From positions 30,693 through 62,692 of the forward strand of contig JASJBI010000026.1 of assembly GCA_030066595.1 (NCBI GenBank): a stretch of DNA of 32,000 nt. The letters are read 5' to 3'. The stretch comes from Alphaproteobacteria bacterium (GTDB lineage: Bacteria; Pseudomonadota; Alphaproteobacteria; JAJFFI01). A model generated the notes under the pieces. That model saw only the letters and a list, made by a program, of their open reading frames with translations, searched no databases and had not been told where the DNA came from. This document shows positions 3,314 to 18,006 of the stretch, in pieces; within the stretch, counting starts at the first letter, position 1, and every line of letters starts with the position of its first letter. The position numbers and the translations under genes are program-made.

Positions 3314-3733
3314 ATGCGTTCGGGTCGGATCAAATGCCACCGGGCCTAAGGGACTGTCCGGAAGAGTGAATCCCAGTAACCGGATTGGGGGCGCAGTCTC
3401 AATGCAGCCTGTATGCTCCGCAATACCCACTAAAGTGCTATCAGTGGAGTCCTTTCGAGCCGTCTCCGCGCGACCCAAGGCACGAAGACGGAGTCTCGAT
3501 TGAAGCCCGCGCAGGAATAGATGGCTCGGTCGGAAATCTCATCACCGGCTAATGCGACTTGTCCTTTGTTCCCTGAATAGATCGCCAAGACAGGCTGAGC
3601 ATCATTCAAGTTGTGAACCTTGACCGGTGCTTAAATCCTGCACCGGCCCCACCTATGCGTTCATCTTTTCTTAACCAGCCCTGTTTACTTCTTGTAAACC
3701 ATATTGGACTGCTTGTTGCAGAGGCGATATCAG

Positions 3734-4765
3734 ATGCTAAACCAGCGGCACAAAGTGCTCCTTGTCGAAGGCAAAGAGGAGCAGGCGGGCGATGTCGGAT
3801 CACGGCTGGAGCAAAAGTCCGGGGACCTTGGCGGTGTGGCGCACGCCGACTCAGGGTTCGAGGACGCATCCCGGATGGCCTCCGATATCCGCATCACGGA
3901 GACCGGATGGTCTGGCGCGACGCCTTATCTGGTGGCCCTCGGGAAAATCACCGCCTGCGTCCATCTTGAGCGCGGCGCGCGCATCGCGAGGCAGGCCGCA
4001 GATCAGTCGAGTCAGATCGCGTCTCAGTTCCTGGCCAATGTGAGCCACGAATTGCGGACGCCGCTCAACTCGATCATCGGCTTCTCCGATCTCATGCTGG
4101 CCGGCCTGCGCAGCGACGTTCGGGACGACGAGCAGCGCGAGTATCTGCGGTACATCCGCTCAAGCGGCGCGCATCTGCTCGAGCTGATCAACGGTATTTT
4201 GGATCTGTCCAAGGCGGAAGCGGGCCAGCTCGAGTTGGCGGTCGAGAAATGCGACGTGCGGGAGCTCTTGGATGTCACGGTCCGCGCGCTCGAGACGCAA
4301 GCCGCGGCCAAGTCCATCCGGATTCAGAGACAGCCCGTGGCCCGCGGCCTCGCGGTCATGGCCGACAAGATCAAGATCGGGCAGGTTCTCCTGAACCTGG
4401 CCTCAAACGCGGTCAAATTCACGGATGAGGGCGGGGAAGTCACGATCGCCGCCATCCGCATGACCAGCGGCGAGGTCCGGTTCACGGTTAGCGACACCGG
4501 CGTCGGCATGCCCGCCAGCATGATCCCCAAGGCCTTCGCCGCCTTCTCCCGGGCCGGCAACGCCTATACCACGCGCAGGAAAGCCGAGGGCGTTGGCCTG
4601 GGCCTGGCGCTGGCCAGGCGGCTGACCGAAATACATGGCGGAACCATCGCCATGGAGAGCGAAGAAGGCCGGGGCAGCAAAGTCACGGTGATGTTGCCGC
4701 CCGAGCGGACGACGGATCTGCCGTACCCCGAATCAAGCCCCGGACGGCGCGCCGACGCCAACTGA
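3734..4765 (+). CDS. Soluble sensor histidine kinase (HisKA + HATPase_c) with a short degenerate receiver-like N-terminus.
   Basis: Motifs present: H-box FLANVSHELRTPLNSIIGFSDLM, N-box LLNLASNAVKFT, G1 DTGVGM, G2 GVGLGLALARRL. I see no hydrophobic TM segment. I chose the start at ATG 3734 (MLNQRHKVLLVEGKEE), which is in frame within track ORF 3704..4765. Confidence 0.85.
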   Translation: MLNQRHKVLLVEGKEEQAGDVGSRLEQKSGDLGGVAHADSGFEDASRMASDIRITETGWSGATPYLVALGKITACVHLERGARIARQAADQSSQIASQFLANVSHELRTPLNSIIGFSDLMLAGLRSDVRDDEQREYLRYIRSSGAHLLELINGILDLSKAEAGQLELAVEKCDVRELLDVTVRALETQAAAKSIRIQRQPVARGLAVMADKIKIGQVLLNLASNAVKFTDEGGEVTIAAIRMTSGEVRFTVSDTGVGMPASMIPKAFAAFSRAGNAYTTRRKAEGVGLGLALARRLTEIHGGTIAMESEEGRGSKVTVMLPPERTTDLPYPESSPGRRADAN

Positions 4766-5010: not shown

Positions 5011-6549
5011 ATGGCGCGGGCGCCCCTGACGGTTCTTGTCGTCGCATCGCATACCGGCCAAGCCGAGCGATTTCAGGCCCTTCTCGAACGCCAGGACCCG
5101 ACGCGGATCCGGCTGCGGAGCTGCAGCCGGGCCAGCCAGGTCTTGGTCGAAACGACCGAGAAACAGGTCGACGCCATGGTCGTCGCCTTGGCGTCCGCCG
5201 ACAAGACCGGCGTCATGGACATCGAACGGGTCTGCGTGCTGGTGCCCGAGACGGCGGTTATCGTGCTGACCGAGGTCGAGGACGAGGACCTAGACCGCCA
5301 GCTGGTCCAAGCCGGGGCCCAGGACGTCATCGCCGCCGCCGCGCTCGACTCCCCGGACCTGGTCGCCCGTATCCGGAACGCCGTCGATCGCCAGCGCCAG
5401 ATGGTCGAGCAGGCCACCCGCCGCCATCATCTGGAGGTCGCCAACCAGCGGTTCCGCAGCCTGATCAGCGACCGGTTCCGCAGCCTGGTCATGGACAACG
5501 CCGACGCCATGCTGGTGCTCGACAAGGGCGGCAACACCTGCTTCATCAACCCGGCCGCGGAGACGCTGCTGCGCGACCAGAGCGGCGACCTGATCGGCAG
5601 CCGGTTTGCCAACCTCTCCGATATCGATGAAGAGACCGAGATCGAGGTGCCGCGTGCCGACGGCTCGGTGCTGGTCGCGGCCATGCGCATCATGGACACG
5701 GTTTGGGAGGGCGAGGACGCCTACATCGTCACCCTGCACGACATCACCGAACGCAAGCGTCTCGAGCGGGCCATGCGGGCCGCCAAGCAGACCGCCGAGC
5801 GGGCGAGCAAGATGAAATCCCTGTTCCTCGCCAATATGAGCCACGAGCTGCGCACGCCGTTGAACGCCATCATCGGCTTTGCCGAGCTCATGGAAGCGCA
5901 GGCGTTCGGTCCGCTTGGGCACAAGAAGTATCTCGAATACGCCCGCCACATCACCCAAAGCGGCGGGCACCTTTTGGAGCTGATCAACGGGCTCCTGGAT
6001 CTCTCGAAGGCGGAGGCGGGCAAGCTCGAACTGCGTCGCGAGGAGTTCGATCTCGGCACGGTGATCCGCGGCACGGTCGAGGTCATGGAGGCCCGCGCCC
6101 GCCGCGGCAAGGTCCGTCTGCGCACGGAGCTGCAAGACGAGCCCTTCCGGGTGATGGCCGACCGGCTCAAGATCCGGCAGATCATGCTCAATCTGTTGTC
6201 GAATGCCGTGAAGTTCACGCCCGAGGGCGGCGAGGTGCGGGTTTCGGTCGCCTGCGGCCGCGACAATCAGATCGAGATCCAGGTGATAGACACCGGGATC
6301 GGCATGCCGAGGGATCAGATCCCCAAGGCGTTCGCGGCCTTCAACCAGGTGGAGAACGCCTGGACCAAAAAGCTGGCCGAGGGCAGCGGCCTGGGCCTGG
6401 CGCTCACCAAACGGTTGGTCGAGCTGCACGGCGGCACGATCAAGCTGACCAGCGAGGTGGGCGTCGGCACGACAGCCACGGTGCTGCTGCCCTGCAAGCC
6501 GCAAAGCGGCGCGAAGTCCGAGAACGAGACCCTGCCGGTCACCGCCTAG
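5011..6549 (+). CDS. Sensor histidine kinase with an N-terminal receiver-like (pseudo-receiver) domain, a PAS-like region, HisKA and HATPase_c.
   Basis: The ORF is 512 aa. Motifs present: H-box FLANMSHELRTPLNAIIGFAELM, N-box LLNLLSNAVKFT, DTGIGM, GSGLGLALTKRL. A PAS-like segment reads FRSLVMDNADAMLVLDKGGNTCFINPAAETLL...ITERKRLE. The N-terminus, LTVLVVASHTG...DAMVVALASADKTG...VIVLTE, resembles CheY but lacks the acidic residues. Confidence 0.85.
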   Translation: MARAPLTVLVVASHTGQAERFQALLERQDPTRIRLRSCSRASQVLVETTEKQVDAMVVALASADKTGVMDIERVCVLVPETAVIVLTEVEDEDLDRQLVQAGAQDVIAAAALDSPDLVARIRNAVDRQRQMVEQATRRHHLEVANQRFRSLISDRFRSLVMDNADAMLVLDKGGNTCFINPAAETLLRDQSGDLIGSRFANLSDIDEETEIEVPRADGSVLVAAMRIMDTVWEGEDAYIVTLHDITERKRLERAMRAAKQTAERASKMKSLFLANMSHELRTPLNAIIGFAELMEAQAFGPLGHKKYLEYARHITQSGGHLLELINGLLDLSKAEAGKLELRREEFDLGTVIRGTVEVMEARARRGKVRLRTELQDEPFRVMADRLKIRQIMLNLLSNAVKFTPEGGEVRVSVACGRDNQIEIQVIDTGIGMPRDQIPKAFAAFNQVENAWTKKLAEGSGLGLALTKRLVELHGGTIKLTSEVGVGTTATVLLPCKPQSGAKSENETLPVTA

Positions 6550-7273: not shown

Positions 7274-9550
7274 CTAGGCGCGCCGCAGATGATAGGCAGG
7301 CGTCGTGCCGAACGCCTTGGGCAAGGTGAGGTTCCCGACATATTCGAGTGCAATCCCGCCTACGTTCTCCGCCGTGGCAACCGCCGCAAAAGACTCGCTG
7401 ACATAGACATTTCCAGGCGGAGTCACGGGTTCGATCCGAGCCGCCCGGTTGACGTAAGCGCCGCAGTACGTGACGCCGCCGGTAACGGGATCCGGCTGCG
7501 CGTGCACCGGCCCACAATCTATGGACAGCCGCAGACCGAGATGACGGGCGAGCCCCACGGCTGCCCAGTCAAGCGCATCGAAGCGATCGCGCAAATCCAA
7601 CCCGAACCGACAAGCCGACCGCACATCGGCCAGCACAAAGAAAAGACCGTCCCCAGTCGTACGACGATGAAGAACCGAAGCATCGTATTTCTGTGCGACT
7701 TCAGCCACGGGCCGCAAGAAGTGAGTCATGAAGTCCGGCAGAAGATGATCCGGGAGATCGCTGTAACCGCTCGTGTCAGCGAACAGCATTGCCCGGATTC
7801 GCCGTGCGCTTGCCAGGTCGCTTTCGGGTTCGAGGCCCGACGTGGCAGATTGCGAGACGTCTGTCTTGGTTGCGTTCGAGCGGTTGCCGATCGGGTGGAC
7901 TTTGCGGCCTTCACGATGCCACAGATCTGGCAACGACGCGGCGGGACCAGGACGGATTTCACCGGCAAGCGAGATCCTTTCTACGACAGTCGAGAGCGAC
8001 CGAGCCCGCAGAGCCGCTAGGCCGTCCGCGTGGAGGTCGGCAAAGTACTGAGCCTCGACCAGGCCCTGCGGTTCGAAATCACACAGGGCCAGAACGCGTG
8101 CCGCATCTGAGACAAGTCGATCGAAGCGCTCGGCCCACTGATTGCCGAGCGCTCGGCGAATCCAGGACTCCTTGAAGACCTCTGCCGGATAGGGGAGCAC
8201 CACATTGATCTCCGCGTCCTGGCGGTTCAGTTCCTCAAGAAAAAGAAGTTCGGCGACGCTTGCCGCCGAAGCATATCCGACGGACGCGCCGAGTCCGTCC
8301 AGACACCTGGCGATCTCATCAGCCAAGGCGCTTTCCGACATGTCCGACTGAGTGATCTCGCCCTCTTGTTCTGCTCTCCACGAGCCAAAGACCACGCAGG
8401 ACGGCGCGGGTATGAGTTCCTCAACACGCAAGTCGATGTCGCCGGTGTGATCCAGGACAAGCGCGGCTTGGCGACGGCTAGCGCCAAGGTCACGGTCCCG
8501 CCGTTGACCACGCGCCGCGCGCGCCGCGAGCCCGTAGTACTTCCTGCTTCGTGCTTCATCCCGCTGGATCAGCGCTGCCTCCCCCAGTGTCGCCAGCGGC
8601 CAGTAGTGGTCCTGATGAGCATCCTCCGCGTTGAGTTGCTCTTCACAAATAACCTCCACCTCCCGAGCAAGACGCTGAGCCAGATCTGCGTCTGCGCTTA
8701 GGAGAGCTGTCATAGCGGCGTTGATGCCGTTGTAGGAGGCGTGGTCCAGCCGACCTTCCTTTCGGGCGTTCTTGTAGGCGCCGAGATAGGCGCTATGCGC
8801 CTTTCTCATCTGGCCGGTACGTTGGTCCTGATCCTGCGCGCTGAGTGCGAGCTCCTTGAACGTGCGACCGAGCAGCCCAAGGGTCTCTCCGTCCCGCAGC
8901 CCTTGTTGGTGCAGACCCGTCAGGATCGCATGCGCGGGCATCAGGGCACCGCACTGGATGAGCGCAAGGCCCATCAACTGATTGAGCCGGAGCGCAAGGT
9001 CCCGTTCGTCTTTGGCGAGCTGATCCAGTCTCGCACCTGCCGGAAAGTGGGCCAGCCCCTCGGCGGCGACGTCATATGCGAACAATGGATCGATCCGCAC
9101 GGCCCGCTCGGTCAGGTCTCGGTACAGACGGGGATGGCTGGACCAAAGATCGTGGTCACGATGCAGCCATACACTTCGCAGGTTCGCCGACGTGGCGCGG
9201 CGAGGATCACTCAGGATCTCAGTGATGTCTTGCGGTTCGGCGCCGGCAGCTGGTAGCCGGTTGCCTTGGCCAGGGTTGATCTCGAAGCCCAACGCGAGAA
9301 CCGCCTTGAGTGTCTCTGACGCGCTTTGCAGATCGTATTCCTTCTCGGAGTCCGGCAGTTCGCTGAACTCGATCAGGTTTGGGTGTGTCTTTTGGTCTTG
9401 GTTGCGATCCGTACCGTGACGCCAACCCTCGGCAAGCCGTCTGGCGGCCCAAACGTCGTGCAAATGGCGCGCCAGCTCCGCAAGCCGCCGCTCCAGGGAT
9501 TCATCGAGCTCAATCTCCGACGTGTCTATCGGTGTCGGACGATAACCCAT
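7274..9550 (-). CDS. Multidomain signalling protein: RyR domain + DUF4071/MAP3K-TRAF-binding-like TPR region + Rossmann/SLOG-like module + class III adenylate/guanylate-type nucleotidyl cyclase.
   Basis: The track ORF is 7274..9661. I place the start at ATG 9550 (MGYRPTPID), because the upstream 37 codons are an Arg/Ser/Pro-rich extension. Domain motifs are listed in the four sub-features that follow. Confidence 0.85.
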   Translation of the reverse strand: MGYRPTPIDTSEIELDESLERRLAELARHLHDVWAARRLAEGWRHGTDRNQDQKTHPNLIEFSELPDSEKEYDLQSASETLKAVLALGFEINPGQGNRLPAAGAEPQDITEILSDPRRATSANLRSVWLHRDHDLWSSHPRLYRDLTERAVRIDPLFAYDVAAEGLAHFPAGARLDQLAKDERDLALRLNQLMGLALIQCGALMPAHAILTGLHQQGLRDGETLGLLGRTFKELALSAQDQDQRTGQMRKAHSAYLGAYKNARKEGRLDHASYNGINAAMTALLSADADLAQRLAREVEVICEEQLNAEDAHQDHYWPLATLGEAALIQRDEARSRKYYGLAARAARGQRRDRDLGASRRQAALVLDHTGDIDLRVEELIPAPSCVVFGSWRAEQEGEITQSDMSESALADEIARCLDGLGASVGYASAASVAELLFLEELNRQDAEINVVLPYPAEVFKESWIRRALGNQWAERFDRLVSDAARVLALCDFEPQGLVEAQYFADLHADGLAALRARSLSTVVERISLAGEIRPGPAASLPDLWHREGRKVHPIGNRSNATKTDVSQSATSGLEPESDLASARRIRAMLFADTSGYSDLPDHLLPDFMTHFLRPVAEVAQKYDASVLHRRTTGDGLFFVLADVRSACRFGLDLRDRFDALDWAAVGLARHLGLRLSIDCGPVHAQPDPVTGGVTYCGAYVNRAARIEPVTPPGNVYVSESFAAVATAENVGGIALEYVGNLTLPKAFGTTPAYHLRRA
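7292..7804 (-). other. Class III nucleotidyl cyclase catalytic domain.
   Basis: The first metal Asp is in MLFADTSGYS (nt 7760..7789). The second metal Asp is in TTGDGLFF (7637..7660). The transition-state Asn/Arg pair is in YVNRAARIE (7430..7456), followed by PGNVYVSESF. Confidence 0.8.
7967..8410 (-). other. Rossmann-like (SLOG/LOG-like?) module.
   Basis: The segment reads CVVFGSWRAEQEG...LGASVGYASAASVAELLFLEELNRQDAEINVVLPYPAEVFKES. It resembles a recurring G-x-A-x-GAD-x-LF-x-E...VVLPF module found upstream of cyclase domains in other bacterial proteins (from memory). Here the GAD is degenerate (SVA). Confidence 0.35.
8417..9214 (-). other. DUF4071 / MAP3K TRAF-binding-like helical (TPR-like) region.
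   Basis: The motifs LGLLGRTFKELA and HASYNGINAAMTALL match the GRxYKD and YYPGINAATL signatures that I recall for this family. The surrounding sequence is helical. Confidence 0.5.
9278..9508 (-). other. RyR (ryanodine-receptor repeat, PF02026-like) domain of the cyclase protein.
   Basis: The segment reads LAELARHLHDVWAARRLAEGWRHGTDRNQDQKTHPNLIEFSELPDSEKEYDLQSASETLKAVLALGFEI. It matches the RyR pattern as I remember it: H-x-x-W, a GW-x-x-G motif, HP-x-L-V/I-x-[FY], and L-x-x-x-EK-x-x-D. Confidence 0.7.
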
Positions 9551-9739
9551 GTGCGAGATCCTTCGAGCAGGGGGAGCAGCATAGCAGATCCCCAAAGGCG
9601 AGCGGGCAGCCGGAACAGGCGAGCTGCTGCGTCGTCGACGGCGACCGGCCTGGCGTCTCACATCCGGCGAAATATATCCCGGAGTGGCAGCACTTATGGG
9701 GGCGAAACCAAGCCAATGTCCGTCCGGGTCCCGAATCTA

Positions 9740-9751
9740 GGAAAATTTTCC
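9740..9751. promoter_or_regulatory. Perfect 12-bp palindrome GGAAAATTTTCC in the divergent promoter region.
   Basis: The sequence is its own reverse complement. It lies in the 357-nt gap between the divergent cyclase and RyR mini-protein genes. Confidence 0.3.
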
Positions 9752-9839
9752 AAATCATGTGGAATCTGGCCTATACGTCTCTCCGTTGATTGCCGCAAGA
9801 AACGGCTCGCTGGCAGAGACGTGTGACTTTCAACACATT

Positions 9840-9855
9840 CATTGGATTTCCAATG
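9840..9855. promoter_or_regulatory. Inverted repeat CATTGGA-TT-TCCAATG upstream of the RyR mini-gene.
   Basis: It has 7-bp arms and a 2-nt centre. It ends 52 nt upstream of ATG 9908. Confidence 0.3.
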
Positions 9856-9907
9856 ACTAGGATTGCAACCATGTCCCACGTCTCAACAGTGCCGACTGGA
9901 TGGATAC

Positions 9908-10201
9908 ATGGCTCCCAAAAGCAAAGACCGCCTCGATACCAATGCGGTCGAACTCAACCAGCAATTCCTGGGATACGTCGAGGTGCTCGCCGCCCATATC
10001 CACCACAATTGGCTCGAGCGACGCGTGGCTGAAGGATGGGGACCTGGCAAGCAGCGGAATGACGACCGTATGACCCATCCGTGCATCAAACCGTACTCGG
10101 CGCTGCCGGAAAGCGAAAAAGAGTACGACCGGGAATCGGCGAGAGAAACGTTGAAAGCCTTGCTGGCCTTGGGATGCCGGATCACCGGCCCGGCCGGCTA
10201 G
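9908..10201 (+). CDS. Stand-alone RyR-domain protein (97 aa).
   Basis: The track ORF 9863..10201 starts at a TTG. I prefer ATG 9908 (MAPKSKDRLD...). The protein reads VEVLAAHIHHNWLERRVAEGWGPGKQRNDDRMTHPCIKPYSALPESEKEYDRESARETLKALLALGCRI, which aligns colinearly with the RyR domain of the neighbouring cyclase protein. Confidence 0.75.
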   Translation: MAPKSKDRLDTNAVELNQQFLGYVEVLAAHIHHNWLERRVAEGWGPGKQRNDDRMTHPCIKPYSALPESEKEYDRESARETLKALLALGCRITGPAG

Positions 10202-10289
10202 CTTCGTGAGCCCGTAGCGGACGCGCTGCCGCCTCCGGGCCGGTCAACTGGCAAGCCGCGACGCCGCGGATTTCAGGGCACGCCGGCAG

Positions 10290-12209
10290 CTATTCGAATA
10301 TCGCGAGGCAGGCGTCAAACAGATGCTCGTCGTGACGATCCAGGGATGGCCGCCGCGAAGCCTGGCCCTTGATACCTTCGAGGACCGACTGAATGAGCTC
10401 CTGGTCGTGGCTGGGCTCCTGAAATGCGTCTTGCATCATCAGCAGAGCGGTCACGCTGTCACGAAGCAGGCTCGGAAAGTGCCGCTCTTGAACGAGACTC
10501 TGGAATTCGGCAAGGGCCCTGTCTGCCAGCTTCTTCCGTTCACGTTCTCCCTGGCAAATGGCCAGTCCCACCAGCGCGGTCGCCTGCGCGTAGCGCAGCT
10601 CAATGGTCCGATGCCGGTCGTTTGAACCGGCCTCCTTCAACCCTTTTCGACAGTAATCCGCCGCCGCTTTGAAGGCTTTCTTCGCGTTCGTAAGGCCGTA
10701 CGCAGCCGCGCCATAGGCCTCGCTCTCCCTGAGCAACACGATTCCCATCAGCAGTTCCGGTGGCCAGGCAACAGCAAGCGCGTCCTTTCTTGTTGCATCG
10801 AGCAATGCCTTGGGAGGTTTTGGAAACTCGGCTGCAGGAGCGTCCTGTTCGAGCACGAGTCGTGTGCACTCGAGCCAGTGATAATAGTCTTCCCAGAGAC
10901 CGTCACCGCTGCGCTCGTCCTTGATATAGCCTTTCGGCGCAGTCTCATGGGCGCTGCGATGGTACGTCTCAGCGAGCTCAAGCGAGTTCTTTCGCTCGAC
11001 TCGCTTGTCGAGGCAGGAATAGACACGCGACAGCTCTCGATGCACGTTCCCCAGGCGCCTGAGAGAAGTTGCCCGTCTCTTGTGATCGTTACCGCGTTCA
11101 GCCAGTGAAGCTGCTCTGTCATAGAAGTTGATCGCAGACTGGAAATGCATTGCGGCGGCGGCGCAATCGTCCGCGAGGAATGAATCCCATCCGAGATCGC
11201 GACTGGCATTGCCGAGGCGCGCCAGAGTGATCTGCTCGCCCCTTCGATTGCCTATTTCCCGCTGGCTTTCCAAAGCCAACCTGTAGATACGGTCGGCCTT
11301 CTGGGCAAAACCACGGTCGCGCAAAAAGCTTGCGATGTTTCCGGGCAGCAACCCTCTGCCCCAGCGCCCATGCCTGAACTCGCTGAAGATCTCTAAGGCT
11401 CTTGAGAAGTTCTTCCGCGCGTCGTCCCACTGACCCAGCTTGCCGGACGCCCGCGCCAGGTCTGCATAGGCCAAGCCCCAATTCGGCCGAATGCTGATCT
11501 GCTCTCGCGGATCCCCATCCTCTTGCTGTTTGTTCCACTCTTCGAATTTCTCTACACCGGAGCAAAAATCATCGAAAGCACCCTTGGTGTCATAGTAGTA
11601 ATCGAGCTTCAGCCATCCGATTTCGTTTTGCCAGAGAGCTTCCTGCCAGTTGGCTCTCTTGCGCTCGTTCCTGACACCTTTAGCGATCTTGAGCGCTTCC
11701 TCCAGGTCCTGTCTTCCGCTGGCAATATCGCCTTGATAAGCCCTGCTCCATCCCAGGTAGCCGCACCACGTGCTCTCCTGTTCTCTCCAGCTTATCAAGT
11801 CGGGGTCCTCTTGCCCGTTTGCCTTGGACCTCTTGCGTGCGATCTTGAGGTACTCTGACGCCTTCTTAGGCCGCCCAACAAACAGGTAGGCGAGGCCAAG
11901 CCCGCCCTGATTGGCAACCTCGGCGGATGACGAGACTGGTTGCGAGCACGTCTCGTCCGCGAGTCTCTCCACAAGCTGGGTTCGCATTTCGATCAGTGCC
12001 TGGAGATAGCCCCAGGAAAGCAGATGGCTTGCGATGTCTTCGAGCGCCTGGCAAGCGCTTCGGCAATCGCCAGCGGACATCCGATGTTGGAACTCACTAA
12101 GCTGAGGCTCGACATCGTCGATGCTGTTCCACGTCTCGGGACTGGTGCGCAGTCTCAAGAAGTATTCCGCGGCAAGGCTCTCCAAGGTCGGCTGATTGTA
12201 GTTAGGCAT
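10290..12209 (-). CDS. All-helical TPR-like repeat protein (639 aa), probably the sensor arm of the upstream STAND NTPase.
   Basis: This is the only long ORF across the span. It contains repeated TPR-like A/G/Y/W-spaced helices, for example GLAYLFVGRPKKASEYLKIA, GLAYADLARASGKLGQWDDARKNFSRALEIF and LARLGNASRDLGWDS...AAAMHFQSAINFY. I see no enzymatic motif. The start is 17 nt after the stop of the NB-ARC gene on the same strand. Confidence 0.75.
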   Translation of the reverse strand: MPNYNQPTLESLAAEYFLRLRTSPETWNSIDDVEPQLSEFQHRMSAGDCRSACQALEDIASHLLSWGYLQALIEMRTQLVERLADETCSQPVSSSAEVANQGGLGLAYLFVGRPKKASEYLKIARKRSKANGQEDPDLISWREQESTWCGYLGWSRAYQGDIASGRQDLEEALKIAKGVRNERKRANWQEALWQNEIGWLKLDYYYDTKGAFDDFCSGVEKFEEWNKQQEDGDPREQISIRPNWGLAYADLARASGKLGQWDDARKNFSRALEIFSEFRHGRWGRGLLPGNIASFLRDRGFAQKADRIYRLALESQREIGNRRGEQITLARLGNASRDLGWDSFLADDCAAAAMHFQSAINFYDRAASLAERGNDHKRRATSLRRLGNVHRELSRVYSCLDKRVERKNSLELAETYHRSAHETAPKGYIKDERSGDGLWEDYYHWLECTRLVLEQDAPAAEFPKPPKALLDATRKDALAVAWPPELLMGIVLLRESEAYGAAAYGLTNAKKAFKAAADYCRKGLKEAGSNDRHRTIELRYAQATALVGLAICQGERERKKLADRALAEFQSLVQERHFPSLLRDSVTALLMMQDAFQEPSHDQELIQSVLEGIKGQASRRPSLDRHDEHLFDACLAIFE

Positions 12210-12226
12210 CGGTCGTTCCCATCGTC

Positions 12227-13843
12227 CTACGCTCTCTGGGGGATTTGGCCATAGGCATACTCCCGGTCGAGCGCGTGCAGGCTGTATTGGCGCGTGGCCG
12301 CGTTCATTTGCACGAAATGGCCGTTGACCAGCCGCCGCAGAGACGCGCGAACGTCCAGAGCGGGCAAGAAGGGCTGGGTCAGATAGGCGATCGCCGTTTC
12401 GTCAACCTGATCGTTAAAGACGGCGAGCGCCTCCATGACGCGTTTCTCGGGTTCTTCGAGGCGTCGGTACCCGGCGGCGACCAGAGGTTCCATAACCCCG
12501 GCGCTGAATACGGCTCTGTCCGCCAAGACTTCAGACAGATCGGTCGTCGGATCCTCGTACAACAGACCCGCGAGGATCTCGAGCGCCCGGGGTATGCCCT
12601 GCGTCAGTTTGGCCGCACGTCGCAGGTCGGCCTCCTTGGCGCTGCGCAGGCCAAGCAATCCCTGCGGATCCAGGTCACGCAACAGCTCGACCGCCTCGTC
12701 CTCGCCGAGCCCCTCGCTCAACGAGATCGTCCGCGTGGTTCGCAAGGCGGCGGCGGGCAGCCTCAGCTTCTCCTGCGACGTCACGATCAGCTTCGCGCCG
12801 CTCGGCTTGGTCACGCACTGCTCGACAAAGGCCCGAAGGCCTTTGTCCCGGATCGTGCCGTCCGCCTCCAGCTCGTCCTCGAAATTGTCCATGAGAAAGA
12901 CGTATGTGCCATCCGCCATGACCTCGATCAGGTATTCGGCCTTGGCGGCCAATGACATGGTCGTGTTGACCCAGCGGGCGGCGAGGCTGTCGGCGACCGG
13001 TCTTTCCAGGATCTTGGCGAGGTCCGAATAAAGCCGCTCCAGGGTTATCCGCGTGTTCTGGGCGCTCAGATAGACAATGCCGTTGATCGGGAGGCTGGCG
13101 CCGTTGCCGCGGACTGACATCTCGCCCTGTTCCAGTTCGGCCAGGAGGCGCGTGGCCAGGGCCGTCTTGCCCATACCCCCTCGGCCCAGAACGCTCACCA
13201 TGTGCACGCCGCCATCCAACAGATAGTCTCGGAGTTCCTCTTGTTCCCTTTCGCGGCCCTTGAACGTGTCCACAACATCCAGCGGCCGGACATTCACAAC
13301 GCCATGGCTGTGATGTTGGCGCCCACCCTGGGTCCCGAAGCGGATCTTGCTTTCCTTGAAGGCATCCAAGGAGCAGTCCAACTGCTCCTGCGTCCACTGC
13401 GCGATCGACGCGACCACCTGTTCCGCGAAATCCTTTTCATCCTTGAAGAAATGAACGACATGCGAATTGCAGAGCTCATGGCGCCACGCCGCAATCTTCT
13501 CGTGCTCCGAACCACGATCCACACATTCGGGATCCCAACGCACTTTCTGATCAAGCATGAAGATGAACCGCGCGAGTCCGGATCGGCATGCCTGCTGGTA
13601 TTCAAGCTCGGTGATGGAGCGTTCTTGGTCGGTCGGAATGTGTCCGTAATGCCAGGCAACGATCCCGATATAGACTTGGCAGGCGGCGACGTCGGCGAGA
13701 CATACGTCGAGCGGCCGCCCATCCTTGGCGGGGTAGTCTTCCATCGCTACGACGTCGTGTCGCATGCTCCTGAGAAAGTCATAGGCGGCCTGGCGATACT
13801 CTTGGAGATCGCTATACGTGGACGAAATGTAGATCTTCGCCAT
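12227..13843 (-). CDS. DUF4062 (TIR-like) + NB-ARC STAND P-loop NTPase (538 aa).
   Basis: The N-terminus is MAKIYISSTYSDLQEYRQAAYDFL...MEDYPA...CQVYIGIVAWHYGH...SITELEYQQA...FIFML, the DUF4062 pattern. Walker A is GRGGMGKT (nt 13163..13186) and Walker B is VFLMDNFED. Also present are LIVTSQ, the GxP motif TQGIPRALEILAG, and the MHD-like YSLHALDREYA 12 residues before the stop. Confidence 0.85.
   Translation of the reverse strand: MAKIYISSTYSDLQEYRQAAYDFLRSMRHDVVAMEDYPAKDGRPLDVCLADVAACQVYIGIVAWHYGHIPTDQERSITELEYQQACRSGLARFIFMLDQKVRWDPECVDRGSEHEKIAAWRHELCNSHVVHFFKDEKDFAEQVVASIAQWTQEQLDCSLDAFKESKIRFGTQGGRQHHSHGVVNVRPLDVVDTFKGREREQEELRDYLLDGGVHMVSVLGRGGMGKTALATRLLAELEQGEMSVRGNGASLPINGIVYLSAQNTRITLERLYSDLAKILERPVADSLAARWVNTTMSLAAKAEYLIEVMADGTYVFLMDNFEDELEADGTIRDKGLRAFVEQCVTKPSGAKLIVTSQEKLRLPAAALRTTRTISLSEGLGEDEAVELLRDLDPQGLLGLRSAKEADLRRAAKLTQGIPRALEILAGLLYEDPTTDLSEVLADRAVFSAGVMEPLVAAGYRRLEEPEKRVMEALAVFNDQVDETAIAYLTQPFLPALDVRASLRRLVNGHFVQMNAATRQYSLHALDREYAYGQIPQRA
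13394..13837 (-). other. DUF4062 / TIR-like putative effector domain of the STAND protein.
   Basis: This covers residues about 3-150 of the 538-aa protein; motifs are given in the parent feature. The assignment of DUF4062 to a TIR-like or nucleoside-deoxyribosyltransferase-like fold is from memory of the comparative-genomics literature. Confidence 0.55.
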
Positions 13844-14355
13844 TCGAGCCAGGCCTGCTTCGCGCTTGGTTCCGCAGGCGACCGGAACGTAGGGACGTCC
13901 GGTCGAAGCGTGTATTCACGCACGCAAGCGGGTTGGTCGCTACTCCTCTTGATTGGGCGGTCGCTCTCAGACTTATGCCCAATCTACCCTGCAATAAGAT
14001 TCAATCCAACTTACGCAATTCTTGCAACGTTAATGTGCGTTTTCTCACGATTCCGCCCGGTAACTCAAAAGCGATGGCCAAAAGACATCGATCGGCTCTT
14101 TGACAGTGTTGCAAGGGCTGAGGCGCGTTAGGCGCAGTCCTTCCTGCGGTCCTCAACTATATTTGGATCAACAGACGCGGCTCGCCCTCTTGCAGCGGGC
14201 GCTCGGCTTCAGCCGAGGGGACGCCGTTGGCGCCAGAGCCCAGGACCGTTCGCCTGGGGCTGTATCTCCGACTCGGTGCCGGCCATGTCTTCACGGCAGC
14301 CTCTGACCTTGAGCCGACATAAGGCGCGCCCAAGCAGACGCTCATCGCAATCAGG

Positions 14356-17919: not shown

Positions 17920-18006
17920 TGGTGCGGGTGGGGAGACTCGAACTCCCACTTCCTTGCGGAAACCAGATTTTGAGTCTGGCGCGTCTACCAATTCCGCCAC
18001 ACCCGC
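17920..18006 (-). tRNA. tRNA-Leu (anticodon CAA), class II with a long variable arm and encoded CCA.
   Basis: The minus strand reads GCGGGTGTGGCGGAATTGGTAGACGCGCCAGACTCAAAATCTGGTTTCCGCAAGGAAGTGGGAGTTCGAGTCTCCCCACCCGCACCA. The acceptor stem pairs GCGGGTG with CACCCGC. The anticodon stem-loop is CCAGA-CTCAAAA-TCTGG. The T-arm contains GGGAGTTCGAGTCTCCC. Confidence 0.9.

Follow-up and report, generated by a model that had tools for sequence, protein, structure and literature searches.

Two divergently encoded RyR domains in an alphaproteobacterial island that looks like a Thoeris-type signalling system

We analysed a 32,000-nucleotide stretch of the metagenome-assembled genome of an Alphaproteobacteria bacterium (assembly GCA_030066595.1, contig JASJBI010000026.1, positions 30,693 to 62,692; this whole stretch is the window) in which a four-gene island (7274..13843, 6.6 kb) encodes two RyR domains in divergent genes: one opens a large protein that continues into TPR-S, SLOG and class III cyclase domains, and the other makes up nearly the whole of a mini-protein. 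The identity between the two domains lies at the level of the family background, and there is no sign of a recent tandem or inverted duplicate or of gene conversion; judged from their sequences, they are copies of the RyR/R12 nucleotide-binding module that parted long ago, not recent duplicates. The adjacency of the two genes is above chance. Both domains keep the complete ligand site of phage RyR proteins, and the island, which also encodes a STAND NTPase with an N-terminal DUF4062 domain and a TPR protein, looks like a Thoeris-type signalling system. In the most economical reading, both RyR domains would read an ADP-ribose-type product of a TIR-like NADase, and the mini-protein would act in trans on the activation of the cyclase.

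Kinship and ligand site of the RyR pair

Both proteins pass the gathering threshold of Pfam RyR (PF02026; 27.4 bits), the mini-protein with 93.1 bits and the large protein, over residues 3-92, with 102.4 bits; the original prediction, which was drawn from the window alone, was right that the mini-gene encodes essentially one RyR domain and that its divergent neighbor starts with another. Neither protein has a match in PADLOC or NCBIfam. We take the ATG at 9550 as the real start of the large protein because its homologues begin MxYxPxPIDT. BLASTP aligns residues 9-92 of the mini-protein with residues 8-91 of the large protein without gaps, as had been predicted, and 43 of the 84 aligned residues are identical (51%, E 6e-26); the earlier hand count of 39 of 69 (57%) describes a core subset of this alignment, not its full length. 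The motifs then listed (AEGW, THP, SEKEYD and ETLKAxLALG) are all present.

The pair had been described as far closer than expected for unrelated RyR domains, and local duplication or co-evolution toward similarity had been proposed; neither claim survives comparison with the family. An RyR hidden Markov model (HMM), which we built from 26 free-standing RyR proteins, guided the alignment of 132 non-identical RyR domains, both free and fused. When the 131 other domains are ranked by identity, the fused domain is ninth for the mini-protein and the mini-protein is 27th for the fused domain; the median identity is 51% for free-to-free pairs and 44% for free-to-fused pairs. With the mini-protein as query, we also searched 1.84 billion cluster representatives exhaustively by phmmer and obtained 3,514 relatives at E <= 1e-3, among which the neighbor is approximately the 120th (80.5 bits, 51% identity); dozens of unrelated single-domain RyR proteins are 45-55% identical to the mini-protein. 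In both the alignment and the search, then, the identity is near background, the outcome that had been named as refuting a special closeness. In a neighbor-joining tree the two domains are not sisters, their last common node covering 109 of the 132 leaves; at the nucleotide level they are 56% identical, and the same codon is used at 12 of the 43 identical residues.

The free RyR protein closest to the mini-protein (P0245, 57% identical) is encoded on a contig of 2.8 kb (L182) whose gene layout matches that of the window: large RyR gene (-), mini-gene (+) and TPR gene (-). The first 168 residues of the divergent upstream gene product (RyR plus the start of TPR-S) share 51% identity with the large protein, and the product of the convergent downstream gene is 37% identical to the 639-residue TPR protein of the window over 391 residues. 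Because free RyR genes are absent from 2.16 Mb of comparable flanks and this synteny is kept in L182, we conclude that the adjacency is not due to chance. The two loci also permit a two-by-two comparison: the orthologues are 56.8% (mini-mini) and 55.9% (fused-fused) identical, the within-genome pairs are 51.2% (window) and 35.2% (L182) identical, and the cross pairs are 42-44% identical. Because orthologues are closer than within-genome pairs, the split between free and fused domains is older than the separation of the two genomes, and no similarity is being maintained between the copies.

The function of bacterial and phage RyR domains had been called essentially unknown, a statement that is now outdated. 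The phage RyR-domain proteins (RyDEP) are homodimers that bind 2'- and 3'-cyclic ADP-ribose (2'cADPR and 3'cADPR), the signals of Thoeris TIR enzymes, and some cleave them (PMC13232231). The ligand is contacted by H75, W78, H100 and D117, with H75 and D117 as the catalytic dyad; RyDEP homologues bind 2'/3'cADPR at nanomolar affinity, and most of the tested homologues with the same residues bind only (PMC13232231). RyR modules work as two-fold dimers (PMC13232231). We aligned DyoEdafos gp78 (MN234187.1) with both RyR domains of the window and five other free RyR proteins; the four contact residues of gp78 are invariant columns across all eight sequences, and their equivalents are H32, W35, H57 and D74 in the mini-protein and H31, W34, H56 and D73 in the large protein. 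Three of the motifs common to the pair (H..W, THP and EKEYD) hold all four contact residues; because they are family-wide, these motifs carry no evidence of a special relationship. Each domain probably binds or hydrolyses an ADP-ribose-type signal, a prediction in which the choice between binding and hydrolysis cannot be read from sequence. In L182, the fused RyR (2-532, -) reads HDFR, with Arg in place of the adenine-stacking Trp, and the mini-protein keeps the full tetrad.

The mini-protein and RyDEP share a Pfam domain, small size, a free-standing form and the contact tetrad at identical spacing, and each is expected to form a two-fold dimer that binds ADP-ribose-type nucleotides. However, the mini-protein is only ~23% identical to gp78, lacks its N-terminal extension and is encoded in a bacterial chromosome among defence-type genes: RyDEP is encoded by phage and serves immune evasion, whereas the role of the mini-protein would be host-side, as a sensor subunit or regulator. 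The tandem domains Repeat12 and Repeat34 of the ryanodine receptor and the RyR-like protein of Bacteroides thetaiotaomicron (3NRT, 6UHI) are also among the nearest known counterparts, and the mini-protein matches repeat 1 of RyR3 at i-E 4e-14 and 3NRT at E 2.9e-19. In the animal receptor the functional unit is a two-fold repeat pair within one chain of a calcium channel; in the window the RyR domains are encoded by two divergent genes, and the fused one belongs to a soluble signalling protein.

Domains and genome neighborhoods

The large protein has 72 database homologues with the same architecture. We obtained a full-length AlphaFold2 (AF2) model from 22 homologues (predicted local distance difference test score, pLDDT, 84.7) and modelled the middle domain separately (pLDDT 87). 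After the RyR domain, the model has helices across H106-H369 at high pLDDT, and Pfam TPR-S matches residues 175-280 (8711..9028; E 3.6e-13). The middle domain gave no match to Pfam and none when its sequence profile was compared with PDB sequences; the fold search alone identified it, with YpsA (2nx2; E 4.9e-07, TM 0.63-0.68) as the best Foldseek match, followed by DprA, LOG and ShosA, and from its model we assign it to the SLOG fold. In the window copy, the SLOG motifs of the family are lost (GHMIDxPGR reads SWRAEQEGE, AACGSD reads AASVAE and PGDGPGGTAS reads RPGPAAS); the loss is common to the nearest relatives (P0002, P0003 and P0006), and most other homologues keep the motifs. Because these motifs are degenerate, RyR may be the sole working sensor in the large protein of the window. 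A faint Pfam DACNH match in the large protein (E 0.14) was not used.

The C-terminal domain is borderline for Pfam Guanylate_cyc (17.9-21.5 bits; cut-off 21.9); in Foldseek, its model matches CyaB (3r5g; E 1.5e-08, TMt 0.73), Rv1900c and Ma1120 (TMt 0.73-0.81 for the three), a Pycsar-type uridylate cyclase and many other cyclases. Across the 22 homologues D592, D634 and R674 are invariant and R705 is nearly so; the residue roles (two metal-binding Asp residues and the Asn/Arg transition-state residues) were assigned by eye. Both the modelled fold and these residues are those of a class III nucleotidyl cyclase.

To place the large protein among its relatives, we scanned the genomic loci of 80 homologues (L001-L080, 1.42 Mb in total). 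The N-terminal RyR is kept in 64 of the 80 loci. The dominant neighbor is a TIR gene, which occurs in 50 loci (44 of the 64 that carry RyR and 6 of the 16 that do not); it usually lies less than 250 bp away, often on the same strand, and often encodes a TIR-nSTAND1-TPR/WD40 protein. The association between RyR presence and a TIR neighbor is weak (Fisher p = 0.04), and we do not rely on it. Because TIR is the dominant neighbor, the large-protein family looks like the effector of a candidate two-gene system of the Thoeris type, with a cyclase output. Homologues of the STAND and TPR proteins of the window were found in none of the 80 loci. The closest full-length homologue (P0006) has no TIR neighbor; it adjoins a phage-type integrase and a D5_N primase-like gene (L184, 12478-18742) and may thus mark the margin of a mobile element.

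In ThsA, the type I Thoeris effector (SIR2-SLOG), SLOG serves as the cADPR sensor, and a SLOG-fold domain is present in the large protein too; with this domain, TPR-S and RyR, the large protein has the kind of dedicated sensor for ADP-ribose (ADPR) signals that marks a Thoeris-type effector. TPR-S has been predicted by Aravind's group to act in TIR signalling and is described in the type VIII Thoeris effector ThsI (10.64898/2025.12.03.692087). ThsI (TPR plus CMP hydrolase), which we compared by its description only, thus shares TPR-S with the large protein; the large protein differs in having no CMP-hydrolase/NDT match in profile or fold searches, in the SLOG domain that follows the TPR region and in its cyclase output. 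With respect to Thoeris effectors, the large protein stands apart by its class III cyclase output and its additional N-terminal RyR, and the tables of the Thoeris preprint, as far as available, list no RyR or class III cyclase effector (10.64898/2025.12.03.692087). The window locus departs from Thoeris further, with DUF4062-STAND instead of a canonical TIR and with eroded SLOG motifs. In the accessible literature we found no system that combines RyR, TPR-S, SLOG and cyclase with a TIR neighbor and, in its text, no paper that joins TPR-S with TIR.

The STAND protein begins with DUF4062 (Pfam, E 3e-26), which is followed by AAA_16, NB-ARC and NACHT matches; the Walker A motif (GRGGMGKT) is conserved in the protein and its relatives, and the DUF4062 residues E79 and E81 do not vary. 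The domain acts as a TIR-like NADase with ADPR as its product, and the DUF4062-NACHT architecture is also found in eukaryotic NWD1 and TEP1 (10.64898/2026.05.01.722283). Swarozyc, one of several DUF4062 NADases, is a portal-activated NAD+ depleter for which no downstream receptor is described (10.64898/2026.05.01.722283); in the window, by comparison, the NADase head is carried by a STAND-TPR sensor beside two RyR genes, which suggests that its product is read as a signal. Relatives that are 50-64% identical in the STAND NTPase have exchanged N-terminal heads (DUF4062, class III cyclase, TIR_2, trypsin and PF19960/PF20689), so that, from sequence, this module has the features of a STAND conflict system with an exchangeable head. 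Because DUF4062 is replaced by a class III cyclase head in the relatives P0126 and P0128-P0132 (NTPase identity 54-62%), this gene pool employs cyclase domains in two places, at the head of STAND proteins and as the RyR protein's output. We scanned 79 metagenomic loci of STAND relatives (0.74 Mb): a sequence like the 639-residue TPR protein is fused to or adjoins the STAND relative in 71 of them, and a homologue of the large protein occurs in none of the 79.

Ten other free RyR proteins were looked up, nine for their genome context and, as the tenth, P0245 from the syntenic contig described above. For six of the nine, a nearby protein of 650-850 residues ends in a divergent RyR-like domain that keeps the H..W, H and D positions; one of the nine contigs is too short to show a partner. 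The free RyR gene and its partner gene overlap by 4 bp in L081, and in L089 the partner gene lies ~850 bp downstream. The partners fall into families (L083_734, L084_663 and L092_851 are homologous to one another, as are L085_652 and L089_649), and their operons run on with an M48 peptidase, zinc-ribbon proteins, a TIR_2 or SIR2_2 gene and an nSTAND1 NTPase. In L084, as in the window, a DUF4062 protein, a free RyR and an RyR-bearing protein occur together. NADase/STAND conflict systems thus regularly include a free RyR gene, which in the typical case has a second RyR-type domain as its partner.

The recurrent pair in L081-L087, L089-L095, L179-L181 and L183 consists of a free RyR (85-140 residues) followed by the 650-850-residue protein, which combines an RCK/TrkA_N-like or nucleotidyltransferase-like part with the divergent C-terminal RyR-like domain; an nSTAND1-LRR/WD40 NTPase is often found farther along. 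In otherwise syntenic operons, L179 has a SIR2_2 gene (12631-14031) and L180 a TIR_2 gene (9323-10534), a swap that is consistent with interchangeable NAD+-consuming enzymes. Two of the context free RyR genes adjoin a gene for a 146-148-residue SLATT_1/DUF4231 protein (L176, 1495-2273; L177, 1005-1928; L178). The cADPR-dependent type VII Thoeris system uses SLATT as its effector, and this arrangement suggests that the free RyR may be the sensor for a bare SLATT pore domain.

Possible roles of the mini-protein

In the proposed mechanism, the STAND/TPR pair would sense an invader, oligomerise and turn on its NADase, which would make an ADP-ribose-type product. The RyR domain of the large protein would bind this product (in most relatives SLOG may bind it too), and binding would turn on the dimeric cyclase. 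The mini-protein would act in trans on the RyR binding step; in the leading version, its partner is the fused RyR, the two together making up an R12-like two-fold module, that is, a split receptor, and the mini-protein so tunes activation. We favor pairing because free RyR genes elsewhere sit with proteins that bear RyR-like domains and because the fold works as a two-fold dimer, and the layout kept in L182 (at 51%, 57% and 37% identity for the large, mini- and TPR proteins) supports it; nevertheless, we hold it tentatively, at well below even probability, since we infer the ligand, the sequence of the steps, the output of the cyclase and any contact between the proteins, the heterodimer included. 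The earlier idea of a trans-acting partner or competitor is sustained by the same layout, by the RyR-like partners of six of the nine context proteins and by the two-fold dimers of RyR modules (PMC13232231); the part that fell away is the unusual similarity of the pair.

Several observations weigh against this reading. The window contains no canonical TIR; the TIR-like DUF4062 is the only such domain, 2.7 kb away and in a separate operon. The activity shown for DUF4062 to date is hydrolysis of NAD+ to ADPR only, not formation of a cyclic signal (10.64898/2026.05.01.722283). The large gene and the mini-gene are divergent and, hence, not co-transcribed. The survey suggested with the original prediction, that is, whether homologues of the large protein always have a neighboring RyR mini-gene, gave a negative answer, an outcome that had likewise been named as a refutation: with the HMMER filters off, none of the 80 loci yielded a second RyR or RyR-like domain, so the effector works without a free RyR, and P0006 has no mini-gene either. 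With the filters off, no RyR domain was found near the STAND relatives in any of the 79 loci, many of which are on short contigs. Finally, class III cyclases homodimerise and RyDEP does likewise, so the fused RyR may pair with itself.

Another explanation, which fits the lack of a free RyR beside the 80 homologous effectors, is nearly as likely as pairing, although it too is doubtful: the mini-protein would be a host ligand buffer or off-switch that sequesters or hydrolyses the ADP-ribose-type signal without touching the large protein, setting the threshold of activation or ending the response. The analogy is to the stand-alone CARF ring nucleases of type III CRISPR systems, which are free copies of an effector's sensor domain that are encoded beside the effector and can remove the signal; the mini-protein, too, is a free sensor-domain copy encoded beside an effector and may remove the signal, although fold and ligand are unrelated. 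Free phage RyR proteins bind their ligands at nanomolar affinity or cleave the glycosidic bond (PMC13232231), and the mini-protein keeps the dyad positions (H32, D74) as well as the binding residues (W35, H57). Moreover, the mini-gene is transcribed apart from both neighbors, and an effector family that normally works without a free RyR is what an accessory regulator would predict. A buffer, however, leaves unexplained why free RyR genes are found next to genes for RyR-like-bearing proteins, sometimes overlapping them, or next to bare SLATT pores, patterns that resemble sensor subunits and not brakes; and hydrolysis cannot be read from the residues, since most of the tested RyDEP homologues that have them only bind (PMC13232231). 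It is unlikely, although less so than the explanations that follow it here, that the mini-protein serves the DUF4062-STAND/TPR pair or an unlinked effector as a free sensor, as in the RyR-SLATT pairs, its proximity to the large gene reflecting a shared island. Operons that combine a free RyR with TIR, SIR2 or DUF4062 genes and STAND NTPases (L084, L085/86, L092-95, L179-181 and L183), free RyR genes with SLATT_1 alone and the short distance between the mini-gene and the end of the TPR gene (~90-300 bp in the window and L182) would fit such a role; but RyR is absent from all 79 STAND-relative loci, the mini-gene is convergent with the STAND/TPR operon and outside it, and in both syntenic loci the divergent upstream neighbor is the RyR-bearing large gene.

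We regard it as very improbable that the mini-gene is a leftover anti-defence gene of a phage or mobile element, that is, a true RyDEP unrelated to its neighbors. The sole experimentally characterized free RyR proteins are phage anti-Thoeris factors (PMC13232231), and the G+C content of the island (0.58-0.63) is below that of its flanks (0.64-0.72); but a Pfam scan of the window flanks found no phage or integrase genes around the island (the flanking genes encode two histidine kinases, LysE, an FAD monooxygenase, an aminotransferase, a sigma factor and an AraC regulator), phage RyR proteins resemble the mini-protein less closely (<= 45% identity, mostly partial matches), and L182 keeps the synteny with the same two defence-type neighbors. 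Least probable of all is a recent local duplication, or similarity kept by co-evolution or gene conversion, that has given an unusually close pair: gap-free identity of 51% and common motifs are what it would predict, but the identity is family background, the domains are not sisters (109 of 132 leaves), the shared codons are few (12 of 43), orthologues (56-57%) exceed within-genome pairs (51% and 35%), and the motifs are family-wide ligand contacts.

The locus looks like a TIR/Thoeris-type signalling variant with RyR domains. The handling of TIR-made cyclic ADP-ribose signals by RyR domains was shown only in 2026 and only for phage proteins (PMC13232231); the window locus and its relatives suggest that hosts use RyR as well, as the input domain of a TIR-associated effector and as small free proteins near RyR-bearing partners. 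If so, a receptor type and a cyclase output would be added to Thoeris-like signalling, the compact four-gene island would allow the partner and brake roles of a free RyR to be tested genetically, and the long-debated question of how cADPR relates to the RyR repeats in animal channels would be touched as well. A broader proposal, which we offer with still less confidence than pairing in the window, is that host-encoded free RyR proteins supply in trans one part of a split R12-like receptor, which would read ADP-ribose-type signals from TIR, SIR2 or DUF4062 enzymes. Their partners would be the cyclase protein here, the 650-850-residue proteins elsewhere and possibly SLATT pores; this would be a new sensor class in Thoeris-like immunity and the prokaryotic forerunner of the RyR repeats found in tandem in animal calcium channels.

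Island layout and flanking genes

Table 1. Genes of the island, the intergenic region between the two RyR genes and the domains of the large protein, in window coordinates.
Feature	Coordinates	Strand	Description and basis
Large protein, 758 aa	7274..9550	-	RyR + TPR-S + SLOG + class III cyclase
RyR domain, residues 1-93	9272..9550	-	Pfam RyR; own RyR HMM; alignment with gp78
TPR-S / MAP3K-TRAF-binding-like all-helical region, residues ~106-369	8444..9235	-	Pfam TPR-S; AF2
SLOG-fold Rossmann-like domain (assigned from model), residues ~372-562	7865..8437	-	Homologue alignment; AF2 pLDDT 87; Foldseek
Class III nucleotidyl cyclase domain (assigned from model), residues ~584-757	7280..7801	-	Borderline Pfam; Foldseek; conserved residues
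Divergent intergenic region between both RyR genes	9551..9907	.	357 bp; sequence
Mini-gene, 97 aa	9908..10201	+	Single RyR (R12-type) domain; Pfam RyR; identical 97-aa protein annotated by NCBI
TPR protein, 639 aa	10290..12209	-	Pfam TPR_12 + TPR_2; split-off repeat (sensor) part of STAND module
DUF4062 + STAND NTPase, 538 aa	12227..13843	-	Pfam; DUF4062 13589..13837, NB-ARC/NACHT ~12551..13264

The TPR gene and the mini-gene are convergent and separated by 88 bp. The intergenic region between the two RyR genes has no match to a sigma-70-like promoter consensus or to an intrinsic terminator. It contains a 12-nt inverted repeat (9816-9827, GAGACGTGTGAC; 9873-9884, GTCCCACGTCTC) with 11 of 12 positions complementary and 45 nt spacing, directly upstream of the mini-gene start; this repeat could be an operator or an RNA hairpin.

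The sole RNA gene detected in the window is a tRNA-Leu(CAA) (17920..18006, -), ~3.6 kb past the island in integrase-free surroundings. Directly upstream of the island are two adjacent paralogous histidine kinase genes (3704..4765, +, and 5011..6549, +; mutual phmmer E 2.4e-80), the second of which encodes an N-terminal receiver domain and a PAS domain.

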